This document shows, one piece after another, positions 7,040 through 57,025 of a DNA stretch of 64,000 nt. The notes under the pieces are model-generated. The model worked only from the letters and a program-made list of their open reading frames with translations, made no database searches and had not been told where the DNA came from. Within the stretch, counting starts at the first letter, position 1, and each line of letters opens with the position of its first letter. Source of the DNA: a virus; the IMG/VR virus record IMGVR_UViG_3300045199_000074. The stretch is one strand, 5' to 3'. A program made the translations under genes and the position numbers.

Positions 7040-7447
7040 TTATTTTTGTATCGGTGTTAGCGTGTCGCAAGCAATGAAAAATTTGCCGTCTTCAGTTATT
7101 TTGTGAAAGTCTGTATTGCTGCACGCATCTACGTTCATTAGCAAACTGTCATCTTTATAAATTCTGACTGGACACGTATTAACACCGCAATGCCCCATGC
7201 TAGATAGCATCGTTATGGTTAAGTCTGTTCCGTTTACGTTTACATCAGCTACCGACACCGAAGGAACAAGCTCTCCAAACTGTTTGACGTCTGGAAGTTC
7301 ATCCCCCCAATATTTGTCAGCCTCTTTTGAATCTATCGGGTAATCTTTGTACTGAAGAGTTATTTCAGACGAGAATGAAAGCGTCGGAGACATTGATGCC
7401 ATCGATGCAGCGATGGTGTATGCTACTAATTTCAACTTGAAATTCAT
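7040..7447 (-). CDS. Small secreted protein with CGVNTC motif
   Basis: Signal peptide; 9 bp upstream of the lysozyme-fusion gene with a GGGG RBS between them. Confidence 0.75.
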   Translation of the reverse strand: MNFKLKLVAYTIAASMASMSPTLSFSSEITLQYKDYPIDSKEADKYWGDELPDVKQFGELVPSVSVADVNVNGTDLTITMLSSMGHCGVNTCPVRIYKDDSLLMNVDACSNTDFHKITEDGKFFIACDTLTPIQK

Positions 7448-32403: not shown

Positions 32404-32430
32404 AAAAAACCCGCCTTTTAGGCGGGTTCT
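32404..32430 (-). terminator. Attenuator terminator upstream of the Ser/Gln tRNA operon
   Basis: agaacccgcc-taaaa-ggcgggtttttt ending 6 nt before tRNA-Ser(GCT). Confidence 0.9.
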
Positions 32431-32455: not shown

Positions 32456-32548
32456 TCAGATATTTAGGTCAGTCACCGCGCACATCAACGCATTCGAGCT
32501 TGATGAACTCGATTGTCTTGATTGCTGTTGGGATGACTGAATAAACAT
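32456..32548 (-). CDS. Ser/Gln leader peptide MFIQSSQQQSRQSSSSSSNALMCAVTDLNI*
   Basis: GGAGA RBS 6 nt upstream; 14 of codons 4-18 are Ser (9) or Gln (5). Confidence 0.85.
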   Translation of the reverse strand: MFIQSSQQQSRQSSSSSSNALMCAVTDLNI

Positions 32549-32619: not shown

Positions 32620-33492
32620 TTACATTTTTATTTCCGGACTGTTGGCGTCGATCTCAACATCGCTGGATGCAGTATTATTTATGAGATGTGGTTTCGTTAG
32701 AATTGCTGCATTAAAAATGGCTAATCCTCCGACTGATCGATCATAAACGCCATCGATTCCTCTCTTTCGGGCCTGCAGATCGAAATCGTCTCTACCGATG
32801 ATAGACACTAGCCCGCTTTCTATCCATTTTTGATTGTCCTTATGATTTCTCAAGTCGAGTATCAAGGCCCCTTCTTTGATTGTGGTGACGATAACGGCTC
32901 CACCATTTTCGTCATCTGAAAATTCCGCATAGTTTGAGATTGCCAGTTCCACATCGTCAGCCACATAAAATGCGCGTCCAAAATAGCCTGTTCCAATAGA
33001 TGGTTTGATACCGTAATTCAGGATGTCTTCCGCATTTTCATTCGATGTCCCGTGATAAACTTCCCTACACGACCATCCAATTGCTCCTGAAGGAACTCCG
33101 TCATTCGGGCTGAGGGAGGCCAGCAAGATTGCTTGTTTGACGACATCAACATCGTCCCAAGTGAGATTTCCGCCGATGGAAGGTCCGCTGTCACTTGTAA
33201 GTTTTGGGAACTTATCCAATACATGTGGTAATAGCTGCATTGTGTGTGGATCAACGTAAGTGCCATGCGGCCCGTCTATTTTTACCTCGACGGTTTCGTA
33301 ATCCTCCAATGTATCCAGTTTTCGTTTTGGGCTACATTGATATCCGTACTTGTCGGCCTGGATCGATAATGACCATCCGTGATCCCACTTAATGGATGGG
33401 AATAAACGGCCGTCTTCTTCGGTTCTTTTAGTCATAAGCTCAAACTCGTAGTTTTCATGCTTCAAAATATGGAATAGTAATGAAACAATCAA
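32620..33492 (-). CDS. Two-domain hypothetical protein with a C-terminal PARP/ART-like (H-Y) domain
   Basis: VYHGTS...GYFGRAFYVADD...A..Y motif. Confidence 0.55.
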   Translation of the reverse strand: MIVSLLFHILKHENYEFELMTKRTEEDGRLFPSIKWDHGWSLSIQADKYGYQCSPKRKLDTLEDYETVEVKIDGPHGTYVDPHTMQLLPHVLDKFPKLTSDSGPSIGGNLTWDDVDVVKQAILLASLSPNDGVPSGAIGWSCREVYHGTSNENAEDILNYGIKPSIGTGYFGRAFYVADDVELAISNYAEFSDDENGGAVIVTTIKEGALILDLRNHKDNQKWIESGLVSIIGRDDFDLQARKRGIDGVYDRSVGGLAIFNAAILTKPHLINNTASSDVEIDANSPEIKM

Positions 33493-33525: not shown

Positions 33526-33861
33526 ATGCGACCACAGAAAGAGAGTTTTATAAAAATGACGACTGGAAGATCTAAACTTGCTGCCGAAATTAAAGATTTC
33601 ATTGAAAAGCACGCAAACATTTCACCAAATTACGACCCTGAACACGATGATCCAGAAGATAGATTTACTGGACCTGATGCGTCTTTGATGAACCAGGCTG
33701 CCTTGGCATTAGAAGAAGACCTTGAATTCACTTATGTGCATTCTGACTGGGGGTCCGGTTGCTACTCTCCATATGGTGATAAGCAGGCGCGTGCTTGGCA
33801 CGATGACCTTAAACAGCGCGCCAATGACCTTCGGCTATCTCCTAAGCCTTCACTGCGCTAA
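33526..33861 (+). CDS. Hypothetical protein
   Basis: 111-aa ORF. Confidence 0.65.
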   Translation: MRPQKESFIKMTTGRSKLAAEIKDFIEKHANISPNYDPEHDDPEDRFTGPDASLMNQAALALEEDLEFTYVHSDWGSGCYSPYGDKQARAWHDDLKQRANDLRLSPKPSLR

Positions 33862-34785
33862 CTTATTTGCGGTATCCAGCACATAGGACGCCGCAGTATT
33901 AAAATTGGAGAACGTTTTGAAGGCTGTGTAATCCTTAGGAGGGACACCGAGCTTAGGAGACGAGTCCCCTCCATTTTGAGGGCCGTAGAGCCACAACCAG
34001 AGATTGGCATCGGTAATCGAACCTTGAGGATTGGTTCGTCCGCCACCATTACCACCAGCGCCCATCGAACAATTCTGTCCGTCAGGTATGCGTGCATCAC
34101 GTTGTATTCGCTCTATATCGATTGAGCTATTCTGCTTTATGATTGGATAGCATCCATATTCTCTTCTCAGTCTGTCTGATGTTTCTTCTTTCCAAAGGTC
34201 CATTAGAATGCGCTCTCCGGTGCCAGCGGCCCAATATGCGGATGCCTTTCCTGTCATTGAGGCTATTTGTCTGGAAGACGAGCGCACGCGACCTGGCAGG
34301 AATTTGTAATCACCGCCCATGAGTGAAAGTCCAAGAGTAGCAAATGCTACAGCTCTATTCTCTTCCTGATCTGATAATGCAGTGTCAAGACAATGAGCAG
34401 CATGATATAGAAGAAGCCAGCTTGCAGTTTCGGCGCTCGACGGCAAGTCATAAATAGTCGGCAATGGGGAGCCATAAGAATCTGCAATGAAATTTGGATC
34501 TATATTTGAGATGGGAGGCAGCAGCGCGCATACGCGTCGCGTTCCTTTTCCGTCGAAATCATATTCGATAATATGCGACATACCCATTAATTCAGTGTTA
34601 GACGTCATAAAGCGAACATGTTCACTGCACCAATTTTGTTTTGTTTTTTCACATAAAATTGCGGCGGTTCTAGCCCAGAATTCTGCTGGATCGTCACGAC
34701 GTTCGAGAATGGCAATCTGAACACCTGATACACTTTCCAATGCTGTAATAAAAGCGAAGGCGGCTGTTGGTAAATCTATTGCCAT
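33850..34785 (-). CDS. Hypothetical protein with a degenerate zincin-like motif (YHAAHC)
   Basis: GGAG RBS; 311 aa. Confidence 0.7.
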   Translation of the reverse strand: MAIDLPTAAFAFITALESVSGVQIAILERRDDPAEFWARTAAILCEKTKQNWCSEHVRFMTSNTELMGMSHIIEYDFDGKGTRRVCALLPPISNIDPNFIADSYGSPLPTIYDLPSSAETASWLLLYHAAHCLDTALSDQEENRAVAFATLGLSLMGGDYKFLPGRVRSSSRQIASMTGKASAYWAAGTGERILMDLWKEETSDRLRREYGCYPIIKQNSSIDIERIQRDARIPDGQNCSMGAGGNGGGRTNPQGSITDANLWLWLYGPQNGGDSSPKLGVPPKDYTAFKTFSNFNTAASYVLDTANKLAQ

Positions 34786-34923
34786 CGAAAAACTCCAATA
34801 TTTTGTCTAATGATAGTGGCGTTATATGCTCGAAACCAACACTTTTATTGCCGAATGAGGGAAAGGCTTTTTTGTTACGTGATTTTATTTTTAAAAATAA
34901 TAATAAAAAAGTGAAAAATCGTA

Positions 34924-34952
34924 TTGACAGTTTCTTCGACCTAATGCATTTA
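34924..34952 (+). promoter_or_regulatory. Sigma70-like promoter of the Leu/Pro/His/Tyr operon
   Basis: TTGACA-N17-CATTTA. Confidence 0.6.
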
Positions 34953-34996
34953 TGGATAACACGACGAATTCACGTCGCCAATTTGAGGATAGTGAA

Positions 34997-35164
34997 ATGA
35001 CAACATCGGCACATACAGTACAGGGAAAGGTTGCGGCAGTTTCTGCTCGCGTCGCCCTGTCTCGTGCCTTGTCGGCACTACCTCATCTCCCACATTTGTT
35101 ACCACTCCCGTATTTGGGATGTGGTCAGCGGGCTGTATTGGCGACTGAAGGATACGCAAATTAA
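34997..35164 (+). CDS. Leu/Pro/His/Tyr leader peptide (55 aa; control run LPHLPHLLPLPYL at 35078-35116)
   Basis: GAGGA RBS 7 nt upstream of the ATG at 34997; 13 consecutive Leu/Pro/His/Tyr codons. Confidence 0.85.
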   Translation: MTTSAHTVQGKVAAVSARVALSRALSALPHLPHLLPLPYLGCGQRAVLATEGYAN

Positions 35165-35183
35165 GTAATCCTTCAATCCAACC

Positions 35184-35230
35184 AAGAAGAAACCCTCGCT
35201 GGCCACAAGCTACCGAGGGTTTCTTCTTTT
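35184..35230 (+). terminator. Attenuator terminator upstream of tRNA cluster 2
   Basis: Perfect 15-bp stem aagaagaaaccctcg / cgagggtttcttctt followed by tt. Confidence 0.9.
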
Positions 35231-35370
35231 GTGCGTCTGTATTTCCTCGTTAGAGGGTTCTGTTTATAACAGAATGATCTTTGAAATTGTGAGCAAGAAC
35301 AGTGCAAGCTGGCTTTGGATGTTGTGGCCGTCACCGCGATATTCTTTGGTGAGCTAGTTTGCGAAGAATT

Positions 35371-35454
35371 GGAGGGTTGCCCGAGAGGCCGAACGGGACG
35401 GACTGTAAATCCGTTGAGAAATCCGCGTTGGTTCGAATCCAACACCCTTCACCA
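35371..35454 (+). tRNA. tRNA-Tyr(GTA)
   Basis: acgga-ctGTAaa-tccgt, CCA. Confidence 0.95.
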
Positions 35455-35461
35455 ATTAAAT

Positions 35462-35544
35462 GTGGCAGTGGCGGAATAGGTAGACGCGGTGGATTCAAAA
35501 TCCATTGGGAAACCGTGAGAGTTCGAGTCTCTCCTGCCGCACCA
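35462..35544 (+). tRNA. tRNA-Leu(CAA)
   Basis: gtgga-ttCAAaa-tccat, CCA. Confidence 0.95.
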
Positions 35545-35622
35545 AAATGAATGTATCCGTCTGGGTTTAGAGTATTTAAATATTCAACCCAGACGGAGAA
35601 GAGAAAATGTAATCCGATCTTT

Positions 35623-35699
35623 CGGAGTGTAGCGCAGTCTGGTAGCGCACCTGCCTTGGGAGCAGGGGGTCGCAGGTTCGAATCCTGCCGTTCCGACCA
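35623..35699 (+). tRNA. tRNA-Pro(TGG)
   Basis: cctgc-ctTGGga-gcagg, C1 start, CCA. Confidence 0.95.
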
Positions 35700-35729
35700 T
35701 CGGATTACATTTTCTCTTCGGAGAAATAT

Positions 35730-35812
35730 GCGGTTATGGCGAAATTGGTAGACGCACCAGATTTAGGTTCTGGCGGGAAACCGTGGGGGTTCGAGTCCCT
35801 CTAACCGTACCA
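35730..35812 (+). tRNA. tRNA-Leu(TAG)
   Basis: ccaga-ttTAGgt-tctgg, CCA. Confidence 0.95.
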
Positions 35813-35828
35813 TCTTTTAATACTAATT

Positions 35829-36049
35829 GGGGATGCTCGCCTGGATTCGGTGTGGGCAGTTGCAAAAAACGTAGAACGCGACCGGGGTAAAACCCGGTCT
35901 TCGAAATATCTCAAGCACACGAGTTGTGGATGCACCGAAATAGCCAGAGAGGGCCGAGTAGGGAAGCGCGTTTCTCAAGCATTGAGGTAGCCTGTGGTAA
36001 TGCTCAGGTCCGAAGACAATCGCCGGTTCGAACCCGGTCATCTCCACCA
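35829..36049 (+). ncRNA. Short one-piece tmRNA-like RNA (221 nt)
   Basis: GGGGATG/CATCTCC acceptor with G3-U70, A discriminator and CCA; ctGGATTCG near the 5' end; T arm ccgg-ttcgaac-ccgg; long irregular helix 2. Confidence 0.7.
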
Positions 36050-36054
36050 TTTTC

Positions 36055-36146
36055 GGGGGACGCCAATAAGGATGGGCGGTTCTGTCACTCGGTTGTAACC
36101 CGAGTCCCTATGCGGCAAGCAGTTCAAATCTAGCCGTCCCCCACCA
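36055..36146 (+). ncRNA. Non-canonical tRNA-like RNA A (8-bp acceptor, GTA loop)
   Basis: gggggacg/cgtccccc + ACCA; actcgg-ttGTAac-ccgagt; T-loop ttcaaat. Confidence 0.65.
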
Positions 36147-36154
36147 TTTCGCAC

Positions 36155-36244
36155 GGGGAGTGCGTTAAGAAGGGTATGACAACCCTGGCAGGCCGTACAC
36201 CTGTCCCCTAGTGGCTACGGTAAAAATCCGTCCACTCCCCACCA
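36155..36244 (+). ncRNA. Non-canonical tRNA-like RNA B (8-bp acceptor, GTA loop, degenerate T-loop)
   Basis: ggggagtg/cactcccc + ACCA; gcagg-ccGTAca-cctgt; acgg-taaaaat-ccgt. Confidence 0.65.
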
Positions 36245-36310
36245 AATTTAAACTAACGGGCCGAGACCTGCTGCCTTAAGTGGCGCTGCTCGGCCCGTGA
36301 ACGAAGAATT

Positions 36311-36387
36311 CGGAGTATAGCGCAGCCTGGTAGCGCGATGGTTTTGGGAACCATAGGTCGCAGGTTCGAAGCCTGCTACTCCGACCA
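36311..36387 (+). tRNA. tRNA-Pro(TGG), second copy
   Basis: atggt-ttTGGga-accat, CCA. Confidence 0.93.
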
Positions 36388-36394
36388 ACTAAAT

Positions 36395-36498
36395 GGCAGG
36401 GCCCTGACGTATCCTAGGTAACATTCGTCGGAGTCGGCGTACTAATCAAAGATTACGGATTGATCATCCGCTGAGATCAAGTGCCTGTCCTGCCACCA
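36395..36498 (+). ncRNA. Unknown structured RNA with an 8-bp terminal stem and 3' ACCA
   Basis: ggcagggc/gtcctgcc + ACCA; internal hairpins; no T-loop or D-loop consensus. Confidence 0.5.
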
Positions 36499-36541
36499 GT
36501 TTCGGGCTATTCCTTAGAAAGATTAGCTAGTCATTAAACGT

Positions 36542-36616
36542 GCCGTAGTAGCTCAATGGTTAGAGCGCTGGATTGTGGCTCCAGAGACGGTGGTTCGACT
36601 CCACCCTTCGGTTCCA
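36542..36616 (+). tRNA. tRNA-His(GTG)
   Basis: ctgga-ttGTGgc-tccag, CCA; no encoded G-1; U at the discriminator. Confidence 0.9.
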
Positions 36617-36657
36617 ATACATATGAGTATCCGCTATAGATAAATCAGCGGAAATGT

Positions 36658-36741
36658 GCGGCTGTGGTGGAATGGCAGACACGCAGCGTTGAGGTCGCTG
36701 TGGGGTAACCCGTGGAAGTTCGAATCTTCTCAGCCGCACCA
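36658..36741 (+). tRNA. tRNA-Leu(GAG)
   Basis: cagcg-ttGAGgt-cgctg, CCA. Confidence 0.95.
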
Positions 36742-36784
36742 AGAAACAACAAAACACTATATATCATGTTCCTATTATTAGTTT

Positions 36785-36868
36785 GTGGGCTTGGCGAAAT
36801 TGGTAGACGCGCCGGACTTAAAATGCGGTTCTTAATGAGTACGAGTTCGATCCTCGTAGCCCACACCA
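36785..36868 (+). tRNA. tRNA-Leu(TAA)
   Basis: Loop ctTAAaa, class II, CCA; one anticodon-stem mismatch. Confidence 0.9.
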
Positions 36869-36885
36869 CTATTAACCCTTCAAAT

Positions 36886-36980
36886 GCGGCCGTGGCGGAA
36901 TTTAGTATACGCGCTGGGTTCAGGTCCCAGTGGAGAGCTTGCAACTCTCTGTGCAGGTGCAAGTCCTGCCGTCCGCACCA
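36886..36980 (+). tRNA. tRNA-Leu(CAG), atypical T-loop (tgcaagt)
   Basis: ctggg-ttCAGgt-cccag, long variable arm, CCA. Confidence 0.88.
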
Positions 36981-37020
36981 GATTTTAAACTGTTCTTGTT
37001 TTCATAATTTCATGCTGATG

Positions 37021-37110
37021 TAAAGGCCGCCTTGGTTTGTCCCCCTATGCCTTGGTATGGGCATTTCGTTGCGTTTGATTTGTCTCATCCTTAAAACCGA
37101 GAGAATCTAG
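37021..37110. repeat. Diverged repeat, copy 1 (copy 2 at 56880-56958)
   Basis: Shared gccgcct..tttgtccc..gccttg.tat.ggcatt.cgttgcgtttgattt.tct and gagaatcta. Confidence 0.8.
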
Positions 37111-37143
37111 GCGAGAAACCAAGGTGAACTTTCACATTTTCAA

Positions 37144-37458
37144 ATGATTTTATATTTCTCAACCACGGGCAATCGCGGCATTTTAAAACATTTAACTGAA
37201 CGAGTTATCAAAAGGGAAACATTGAGCGTCGAGCAACTTCGCCAATTGAAGGACATCGAGATACAATTAACAGAATGGATCGAGATTGAGAAAGAATATG
37301 GTCATGGAGCTTCATTGAATTTGCTAAACACGGAAGAAATTGAAAAGCTGGTCTCTATTGAGGGGGAAAAACCGTATTTTAAAGATTATATAAAAAATGC
37401 TGAACGCTACAGGGCTATTATGGGTGATAGCTGGCTTTGGCTTGCAAATGGTAAGTAA
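37144..37458 (+). CDS. Hypothetical protein
   Basis: 104-aa ORF. Confidence 0.6.
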   Translation: MILYFSTTGNRGILKHLTERVIKRETLSVEQLRQLKDIEIQLTEWIEIEKEYGHGASLNLLNTEEIEKLVSIEGEKPYFKDYIKNAERYRAIMGDSWLWLANGK

Positions 37459-37525
37459 ATGTAATTTTATTGATTTTGGCAGCATTATAGCTTAATTTTG
37501 ATGTTATAAATAAACTGTCATTAGT

Positions 37526-37723
37526 ATGATATCAGCACTTTTAAACGAGACTATTGATCCTGCTACGGCACAACTTCTTGACGTTATATCGCAAGATATG
37601 GATAAAAATCCTGATACTTCGGCGATTGTCATCCCAAAATCCTTGATTGAACGAGCTGTAATTTTAACGACTGGCATAGCTGTTGATCTCGATGATGAGA
37701 TCATAGGAGACGTTTCAATTTGA
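37526..37723 (+). CDS. PrlF/SohA antitoxin C-terminal-domain-like small protein
   Basis: DPATAQLLDVISQDM...GIAVDLDDEIIGDVSI resembles the PrlF toxin-binding tail; no AbrB domain. Confidence 0.55.
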   Translation: MISALLNETIDPATAQLLDVISQDMDKNPDTSAIVIPKSLIERAVILTTGIAVDLDDEIIGDVSI

Positions 37724-37783
37724 TAATTGCAGGTAATGAAAGCATATTATTTTTCTGACAACAAATTCAACTCGGAGCCATTT

Positions 37784-38071
37784 ATGTCTGATATTAGCAA
37801 ATCTCTCTATGAACGTCTGATTGATGCAGGCTGTGAAACCGAAAGCTGGCAGAGCGATCTGTATGTTCGTAATACAGAAACTGCGTCACAAATTATTCAC
37901 GCCTTTGAAGCCGAAGGTGGTATCAGCAACAAGCGTAATTTCACAAGTGACCGCGACGGTCAGAGTTGGATTGAACTTCCTTTCAGCTTTAAACCATATT
38001 GGGACGCAAAAAGCCGTGAGGAATTAGCGTCAGATATCGCGGAAGATACCCCTACTACACCAAGAATGTAA
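37784..38071 (+). CDS. Hypothetical protein (phage/plasmid-type)
   Basis: GGAG RBS before MSDISK; SDLYV...DG..WIELPF..P.W. Confidence 0.75.
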   Translation: MSDISKSLYERLIDAGCETESWQSDLYVRNTETASQIIHAFEAEGGISNKRNFTSDRDGQSWIELPFSFKPYWDAKSREELASDIAEDTPTTPRM

Positions 38072-56163: not shown

Positions 56164-56250
56164 ATGTCTGTTTATTTGATCAATCGTCGGCGATTTAGTG
56201 TTGTTGGACATCCGGTGGGATGGCTTCCAAAGCGCTTGCGCATGACATGA
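56164..56250 (+). CDS. Arg/Phe leader peptide 1 MSVYLINRRRFSVVGHPVGWLPKRLRMT*
   Basis: AAGGGA RBS; CGT CGG CGA TTT run and later CGC x2; followed by a terminator. Confidence 0.7.
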   Translation: MSVYLINRRRFSVVGHPVGWLPKRLRMT

Positions 56251-56343: not shown

Positions 56344-56454
56344 ATGCGACGACGACGGCGATTAAAGGTTCGATTTATAACCCAACATGCTGACTTTATT
56401 AACTTGGGATACCGTTTCCTGAGGCGATATTTTACACCTGTTGTTTATTCCTAA
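56344..56454 (+). CDS. Arg/Phe-rich leader-like ORF 2 MRRRRRLKVRFITQHADFINLGYRFLRRYFTPVVYS*
   Basis: GGAG RBS 6 nt upstream; CGA CGA CGA CGG CGA; 9 Arg and 4 Phe in 36 aa. Confidence 0.7.
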   Translation: MRRRRRLKVRFITQHADFINLGYRFLRRYFTPVVYS

Positions 56455-56490: not shown

Positions 56491-56518
56491 TTGACGCCGT
56501 TATTTCTTTGTGTAATAT
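56491..56518 (+). promoter_or_regulatory. Possible internal promoter directly upstream of tRNA-Phe
   Basis: TTGACG-N16-TAATAT. Confidence 0.45.
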
Positions 56519-56842: not shown

Positions 56843-57025
56843 TCAGCTGGGCAGTGCTTCTTTTAAAAATCCGTGAGTATAAACGCCGCCTCGTTTGTCC
56901 CTCCGCGCCTTGATATCGGCATTCCGTTGCGTTTGATTTATCTTAATCAGAGAATCTACCAAGAATTCGAATGAAGCACAAAGCTCGTGTCCCTCCGATC
57001 GACTTTCACGGTTATGTGTTTTCAA
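56843..57025 (-). CDS. Small hypothetical protein containing repeat copy 2 (56880-56958)
   Basis: 60-aa ORF; a disrupted paralog lies at about 37000-37130. Confidence 0.45.
   Translation of the reverse strand: MKTHNRESRSEGHELCASFEFLVDSLIKINQTQRNADIKARRDKRGGVYTHGFLKEALPS

Follow-up and report, generated by a model that had tools for sequence, protein, structure and literature searches.

The 64,000-nucleotide (nt) stretch of DNA analyzed here (IMG/VR virus record IMGVR_UViG_3300045199_000074; the whole stretch is called the window below) contains gyrA, then an integrase, and then an island in which nine transfer RNA (tRNA) genes form one operon, in the order Tyr-GTA, Leu-CAA, Pro-TGG, Leu-TAG, Pro-TGG, His-GTG, Leu-GAG, Leu-TAA, and Leu-CAG. 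Ahead of this operon lie a predicted promoter, a short open reading frame (ORF) with a run of Leu, Pro, His, and Tyr (L/P/H/Y) codons, three alternative RNA helices, the last of which is an intrinsic terminator, and a boxA-like motif (Table 1). The DNA derives from ant metagenomes. An earlier note on it, made from the letters alone, had read the region as a Leu/Pro/His/Tyr attenuator, and here we weigh that interpretation against homologous leaders and against the sister tRNA operons of the same element.

Table 1. Features of the attenuated tRNA operon and of the related clusters in Mesorhizobium sp. SP-1A (positions are those of the window unless a contig is named; bp, base pairs)
Feature	Position	Strand	Details
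Predicted promoter	34924-34952	+	-35 TTGACA (34924-34929), 17-nt spacer, -10-like CATTTA (34947-34952); A/T-rich tract upstream
5' stem-loop CGACG/CGTCG	34962-34977	+	Near predicted transcript start; arms invariant in 7 close relatives
Shine-Dalgarno sequence GAGGA	34986-34990	+	Seven bases ahead of leader ATG
Leader ORF, 55 codons	34997-35164	+	ATG 34997, TAA 35162-35164
Region 1, left arm of hairpin 1:2	35096-35110	+	Core 35101-35109
Region 2, partner of region 1 or region 3	35116-35132	+
Stop-codon hairpin	35146-35175	+	Nested within 2:3 helix; changes on both sides at 6 of 8 pairs in the covariance-model alignment
Intrinsic terminator	35184-35231	+	Inner 4-bp helix 35200-35203/35209-35212; region 3 is 35195-35206
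Two small hairpins	35244-35257 and 35257-35275	+	First covaries; comparable hairpins in L019 and L025
boxA-like motif GATCTTTGAAAT	35276-35287	+	Candidate NusB/NusE loading site
tRNA operon, 9 genes	35371-36980	+	Called by ARAGORN and Rfam
Operon-end element, 51 nt	37035-37085	+	Terminator-like hairpin 37044-37061
SP-1A tRNA clusters	contig 2, 935-1066 kb (L029-L033)		All 20 amino acids, beyond the host's dispersed tRNAs

The promoter is predicted from its sequence: its TTGACA hexamer is invariant among close relatives, and the same TTGACA-17-CAT... layout is found ahead of the leader of a Ser/Gln tRNA operon elsewhere in the window. An E. coli-type promoter scan did not report the site at 34924-34952. 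The small stem-loop near the predicted transcript start possibly protects the 5' end of the RNA.

Within the leader ORF, codons 28 to 40 (35078-35116) read CTA CCT CAT CTC CCA CAT TTG TTA CCA CTC CCG TAT TTG, exactly as the earlier note had listed them, and the two upstream Leu codons it had pointed out, CTG (35057) and TTG (35069), are also present and in the leader reading frame. When all stop-free 13-codon windows in the six frames of the 64 kb were scanned, the window at 35078 was the only one with 13 of 13 L/P/H/Y codons, and the next-best windows all overlap it.

The pairings proposed for this region are found in the sequence. Hairpin 1:2 joins 35101-35109 with 35116-35125 around one bulge and is extended to 35096-35131 in the minimum-free-energy (MFE) structure. 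Helix 2:3 joins 35121-35132 with 35195-35206 through 12 bp, including 2 G-U pairs, or 13 bp if 35120/35207 is counted; the additional "preceding c" that had been assigned to this helix does not pair, as C at 35194 opposes C35133. A helix of 13 contiguous pairs between the sequence after region 1 and the left arm plus loop of the terminator was reached in only 2 of 5,000 shuffles. Terminator 3:4 is a perfect 15-bp stem (35184-35198 with 35214-35228) followed by a U-rich tail, and the inner hairpin described over the stop codon is also present, with arms at 35146-35153 and 35168-35175 that leave the stop codon in the loop between them. When folded, 35060-35235 has a free energy of -69.8 kcal/mol (z = -6.6), and none of 200 shuffled sequences reached a value as low.

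This geometry limits which codons can act as sensors. The earlier note had held that the Leu codons cover all five isoacceptors; on geometry, it is too strong a claim that all five are sensed, since only codons from about 35090 or 35093 to 35111 are able to uncover region 2. A ribosome stalled on the upstream CTG or TTG, or on the codons at the start of the run, would sit too far 5' to mask region 1. The codons that remain effective by this measure (about 35093-35111) are CAT, TTG, TTA, CCA, CTC, CCG, and TAT.

We modeled the switch by folding RNA that was cut just before arm 4 of the terminator, either free or masked to 12 nt past an A site placed on the first codon of the conserved P/S-L-P-Y. 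In the masked, cut RNA, the MFE structure contains the long-range 2:3 helix in all 12 homologous sequences (9 to 16 pairs). The free cut RNA of four of them (L003, L026, L017, and L020) retains the full 1:2 hairpin and has no more than 3 pairs between regions 2 and 3. The equilibrium fold of the whole masked leader was also tried as a test of the switch and was set aside, because the terminator is always kept in it and the switch is visible only in the cut, co-transcriptional folds.

The 12 distinct homologous leaders come from Logan, JGI, and ENA contigs, from Mesorhizobium sp. SP-1A, and from the Rhizobium leguminosarum plasmid pRlX5. Four relatives of the leader peptide were found among 5.8 billion proteins, two in JGI metagenomes, and one among 185,579 species genomes, that of SP-1A, which was also the single positive among 401 genomes in an order-level search. 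A scan of IMG/VR with the leader peptide gave no match, and blastn against plasmids and phages matched tRNA genes only, with no leader homolog. All 12 homologs retain the ATG, the Shine-Dalgarno sequence, and a length of 50 to 55 codons. In each of them, L/P/H/Y codons make up 12 or 13 of the 15 codons that end one past the Tyr codon, and few occur elsewhere in the ORF (none outside the run in L026 and one in L017), the N-terminal half of the leader being variable and largely avoiding these four amino acids. In GC-rich pRlX5, the Leu codons of the run are CTG, CTC, TTG, CTA, CTT, and CTG; the use of five different codons in this background argues that codon diversity is itself selected.

A 1:2 hairpin and a strong terminator also fold in every homolog, with stem sequences that differ among them, and the earlier proposal of a 2:3 helix passes a check of conservation and covariation. 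On a MAFFT alignment, 87.9% of the cells of helix 2:3 are paired, compared with 28 to 54% in controls in which the arms were slid, and 3 of its pairs have changes on both sides, compared with none in the slid controls. For example, the U-A pair 35122/35205 of the window type is C-G in the others, an AG-to-GA change in region 2 of L020 is accompanied by a CT-to-TC change in the terminator loop, and the two G-U pairs become G-C or A-U in GC-rich elements. Within hairpin 1:2, a G in place of A35104 is matched by a compensating C in place of T35122, so that base 35122 covaries with one base in each helix (35104 and 35205), as is typical of a segment that pairs in two alternative ways. For the terminator state, the MAFFT columns, in which the terminator arms of divergent sequences fall out of register, were replaced by a covariance-model alignment. 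In it, 80.1% of the cells are paired across the 12 sequences, compared with 45 to 55% in slid controls, 13 pairs have double changes, and none of 500 shuffles reached the observed values; in close relatives, a one-base deletion in one terminator arm is also compensated by another in the opposite arm. A terminator loop would not be expected to be conserved or to covary unless it pairs elsewhere, and only an antiterminator accounts for its change together with region 2. That a Pro/Leu-rich ORF and a terminator came together by chance is highly improbable in light of these data; the small number of sequences is all that speaks for it, and it is contradicted by the fold and codon-run statistics, by the conservation and covariation, and by retention of the arrangement in elements, such as pRlX5, whose neighboring 311-amino-acid protein is only 49 to 59% identical to that of the window.

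Leaders matched to their own tRNAs were also found at other tRNA operons of these elements. The Ser/Gln operon of the window has a leader ORF (32456-32548, minus strand) that is rich in Gln and Ser codons and is conserved in 11 of 11 loci examined, followed by a terminator (32404-32430, minus strand) that ends six bases before tRNA-Ser-GCT. Two Arg/Phe-rich ORFs (56164-56250 and another starting at 56344) precede the genes for tRNA-Phe, Arg-ACG, and Arg-CCG; the window's Phe/Arg leaders contain 13 CGN and 1 AGR Arg codons, which fits Arg-ACG and Arg-CCG, and a promoter-like TTGACG-16-TAATAT (56491-56518) lies between these ORFs and the tRNAs. In SP-1A, we found 92 tRNA matches, about half of which (~46) fall into seven amino-acid-sorted clusters spread over ~130 kb of one contig, and at least five of the seven clusters have a matched leader. 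The leader of its Trp/Thr/Cys/Arg-TCT cluster (L030, 1094-1168) has a run of 10 out of 10 Trp, Thr, Cys, or Arg codons and then a terminator; in this run, Arg is encoded by AGA and AGG, and Thr mainly by ACG and ACA, which fits Arg-TCT and Thr-CGT/TGT. A split between Arg-CGN and Arg-AGR leaders occurs in both SP-1A and pRlX5. A fit of leader to tRNAs down to codon family and isoacceptor is predicted if tRNA supply, and not amino acids, is what the leaders sense.

Both the covariation and the sister leaders bear on the alternative that the ORF is a gene for a small functional protein and is followed by a terminator that serves this gene, while the tRNA operon is transcribed from a separate downstream promoter and the codon match is a by-product of composition. 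We regard this as improbable, even if the ORF is long for a leader and is annotated as a gene of 53 to 70 amino acids in public assemblies, some sister clusters have promoter-like sites directly before their tRNAs, and the boxA-like motif contains TTGAAA or TTGACA, which could be read as a -35 box. The ORF product has no Pfam match and its N-terminal half is poorly conserved; no conserved -10 element follows the TTGAMA motif, and a scan for sigma-70-like promoters found none between the terminator and tRNA-Tyr. Such a protein would also leave the covariation between the terminator loop and region 2 without explanation, and leaders that match their tRNAs in amino acids precede at least four other operons.

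Thus, the comparison of the 12 leaders (in their helices, codon run, and covariation) and the matched sister leaders support the attenuator interpretation, and the region is likely a functional ribosome-mediated leader-peptide transcription attenuator that gates the tRNA operon. In the mechanism that we propose, transcription would start from the TTGACA promoter (34924) and a ribosome would read the 55-codon leader. With fast decoding of the Leu, Pro, His, and Tyr codons, the ribosome would leave region 1, hairpin 1:2 would form and sequester region 2, and the 15-bp terminator would then halt the RNA polymerase near 35229-35232. When decoding of the run stalls instead, with the A site at about 35093-35111, the ribosome would cover region 1, and the freed region 2 could pair with 35195-35206 once this segment is made, blocking the upper stem of the terminator, so that the polymerase would continue past the boxA-like site, probably in a Rho-resistant form, into the nine tRNA genes. 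Production of these tRNAs by the element is thus probably confined to times of slow decoding at Leu, Pro, His, and Tyr codons. As the tRNAs of the operon decode the sensor codons, the circuit would therefore exert negative feedback on tRNA supply.

A related possibility accepts both the RNA switch and the translation of the leader and places the input elsewhere than in codon-specific tRNA supply, namely, in nascent-peptide arrest (...LPLPY-G-x-G-Q/R-R), in proline- or EF-P-dependent slowing, or in general translation stress. The C-terminal core LPLPY...G.G(Q/R)R is indeed the segment of the peptide that is most conserved among divergent elements, the run is proline rich (with a PP pair in L007), and the trn operon of Anabaena, another supernumerary tRNA array, reacts to general translational stress (PMC8421152, PMC10272220). 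However, the conserved core overlaps regions 1 and 2, and its changes follow the RNA pairing and not the peptide, as seen in a Cys-to-Ser change with compensation and in a codon deletion in L017 that retains the hairpin. Under a general slowdown, region 1 would stay uncovered and termination would be favored, and the very different leaders of the sister operons, matched to their own tRNAs down to the isoacceptor, would be needless in a generic stress sensor. We therefore consider an input of this kind unlikely and favor attenuation by codon-specific decoding.

Several observations weigh against attenuation as proposed here or limit how far it extends. The set of homologs is small and 7 of the 12 are close relatives, so the statistics are modest. 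At equilibrium, the terminator is always part of the MFE structure of the full-length RNA, even with a ribosome mask, and antitermination must therefore be kinetic, as it is in classical attenuators. In addition, the free cut RNA of the window type thermodynamically prefers helix 2:3 over the lower 1:2 stem, and basal read-through may therefore be high, giving a basal state that leaks. Contigs of four metatranscriptome runs span the leader and terminator; as these data are contigs of flat depth that possibly derive from DNA, they neither show nor exclude termination. The leader, at 55 codons, 27 of them ahead of the run, is long for this class of attenuator. The leader of L019 retains Tyr codons, yet no tRNA-Tyr was found at that locus. 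Finally, a promoter-like site lies immediately ahead of the tRNA genes in the short Phe/Arg, Lys, and Glu/Asp clusters, the motif at the window's Phe/Arg operon recurring before the Lys and Glu/Asp clusters of SP-1A, and no Lys-rich leader was found for the Lys cluster of SP-1A, so the design is not universal within the element.

The segment between the terminator and the first tRNA gene also has conserved features. The boxA-like motif aligns in all 10 sequences compared, which represent seven distinct lineages, and is more degenerate in low-GC variants. It agrees at 9 to 11 of 12 bases with a motif of SP-1A, TGTTCTTTGACAA, that lies ~240 nt before the 16S gene in the rrn leader, and GATCTTTGAAAT-like sequence is found ahead of the 13-tRNA cluster of SP-1A and was not seen before its three short clusters. 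The SP-1A motif resembles the rrn boxA, whose consensus is known from E. coli. In rrn operons, boxA loads NusB and NusE and protects long untranslated transcripts from Rho (PMC4807359). We consider it somewhat probable that the motif is a boxA placed downstream of the attenuator, so that only polymerases which have passed the checkpoint would be modified. In the first of the two small hairpins that precede the motif, CCTC/GAGG in the window becomes CCCC/GGGG in relatives, and the second (35257-35275) would be boxB-like if the boxA reading is right. The motif was also considered as the -35 element of a second promoter and rejected, and the 23-nt stretch at 35280-35302, which begins within the motif, has no second copy in the window at three or fewer mismatches, its weak matches in SP-1A being not significant.

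At its distal end, the operon is followed by an element that is 84% identical to a copy at 56893-56943, which closes the Phe/Arg operon, and metatranscriptome contigs end at 37030-37071 in two runs. Inside the operon, a perfect 21-bp inverted repeat (35598-35618 and 35699-35719) flanks tRNA-Pro (35623-35699); it would continue the acceptor stem of this tRNA as a long duplex, at which the RNA may be processed, for instance by RNase III. ARAGORN called no tRNA at 35813-36310, and a weak match to transfer-messenger RNA (tmRNA) lies at 35829-36049 (21 bits; Rfam threshold, 47). Over 34000-38000, Rfam detected only tRNAs besides the subthreshold tmRNA and His_leader matches.

Two further RNA genes were called in related elements. 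In L019, ARAGORN called a tRNA with anticodon TTA, which would read the UAA stop codon, inside the Ser/Gln operon (7049-7135), where it occupies the place of tRNA-Ser-CGA in other elements. In pRlX5, ARAGORN called a tmRNA gene of the permuted type, whose tag ends in RLAA (L037, 11798-12299), ~31 kb from the Trp/Thr/Cys/Arg cluster.

The island also carries genes for TrpS, DNA methyltransferases, a ClpB-like ATPase, a Strawberry-notch helicase, PcfJ, and UmuC. No PHROG match was obtained in a scan of ten island proteins, and a phage origin is therefore not supported; the element appears to be a nonphage mobile element of Hyphomicrobiales, located in R. leguminosarum on a 1.3-Mb plasmid. Between the Ser/Gln operon and the Tyr/Leu/Pro/His operon, both with a predicted attenuator, lies the divergent gene (33850-34785, minus strand) for the 311-amino-acid protein, which has no Pfam or PHROG match and has 80 homologs (40 to 89% identity), several of them in Rhizobium, Sinorhizobium, Agrobacterium, and Neorhizobium. 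We inspected the neighboring loci of 9 of these 80. The order of Ser/Gln operon, 311-amino-acid gene, leader, and Tyr/Leu/Pro/His operon is conserved in the loci fetched. A Sinorhizobium meliloti contig with a homolog has only a Ser/Gln cluster, ~2 kb downstream, and no Leu/Pro/His/Tyr operon or leader, and neither tRNA genes nor such a leader were found at the loci of more distant homologs (~35% identity) on the Methylobacterium extorquens AM1 megaplasmid and two Bosea plasmids. Directly upstream of the Ser/Gln leader, a 290-amino-acid protein (32620-33492, minus strand) has a marginal match to the PARP catalytic domain (27.1 bits; cutoff, 26.7).

The arrangement described here shares its main features with the multivalent attenuators of enterobacteria (ilvGMEDA, ilvBN, and thr, and also trp, his, leu, and pheA), in which a translated leader contains a codon run for several amino acids, exclusive 1:2, 2:3, and 3:4 helices form, and an intrinsic terminator precedes the regulated genes. 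It differs from them in that the regulated genes encode tRNAs and not biosynthetic enzymes, in that these products themselves decode the sensor codons, and in having a leader of 50 to 55 codons with the run at codons 28 to 40 and a boxA-like site after the terminator. The known class regulates genes for biosynthesis or aminoacyl-tRNA synthetases, whereas nine tRNA genes lie downstream here. The theory of multivalent leader-peptide attenuators has been treated previously (PMC1183508). By Rfam, the region belongs to no leader family, with His_leader (RF00514) reaching 25.3 bits against a threshold of 49 (E = 0.4).

Among systems that act on the translation apparatus, E. coli pheST, with its pheM leader, is likewise controlled by a leader-peptide attenuator that responds to the availability of charged tRNA, but it is a chromosomal synthetase operon that responds to a single amino acid. 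T-box riboswitches also let tRNA status feed back on genes for charged-tRNA supply through a choice between terminator and antiterminator; they bind uncharged tRNA directly and without translation, whereas the proposed sensor here is a translating ribosome, and there is no T-box match in 34000-38000 at an E value of 1 or less. The nearest functional analogue is the trn operon of Anabaena sp. PCC 7120, a long tRNA array on a megaplasmid that is off under standard conditions and is induced when translation is impaired (PMC8421152, PMC10272220). It is, as here, a supernumerary array on an accessory replicon, but it is controlled by the TrcR repressor and is one long array and not several amino-acid-sorted operons; no leader, attenuator, or terminator is mentioned for it in PMC8421152. 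We found no published description of a tRNA-operon attenuator in the literature searched, whose coverage leaves out most subscription journals, and the novelty of this locus would be the application of a leader-peptide attenuator to tRNA genes.

Bacterial tRNA genes are thought to be controlled globally, by growth rate and by the stringent response acting at promoters, and we know of no mechanism by which the supply of each tRNA species is gauged separately and acts back on the genes for it. At this locus, a textbook attenuator appears to be used for such feedback, with matching at the codon level that separates Arg-CGN from Arg-AGR operons. This would provide a rationale for large accessory tRNA arrays that stay silent and are still useful, and the boxA-like site after the terminator suggests how a read-through polymerase could finish a long untranslated operon. 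The leaders would be natural, modular, codon-specific sensors of decoding capacity that could act as reporters, and R. leguminosarum TP16 and Mesorhizobium sp. SP-1A offer an experimental system in culturable rhizobia. A broader proposal, which we put forward tentatively and as a possibility short of an expectation, is that these elements are an on-demand, self-limiting tRNA repair kit, a second set of tRNAs kept in amino-acid-sorted operons, most of them with isoacceptor-specific ribosomal sensors, that would switch on exactly those tRNAs that are limiting. If this is true, limitation could follow transfer of the element into a host of different codon usage, or destruction of host tRNAs by the anticodon nucleases of defense systems or competitors, and the operons would be the first natural case known in which single bacterial tRNA species are under feedback control.

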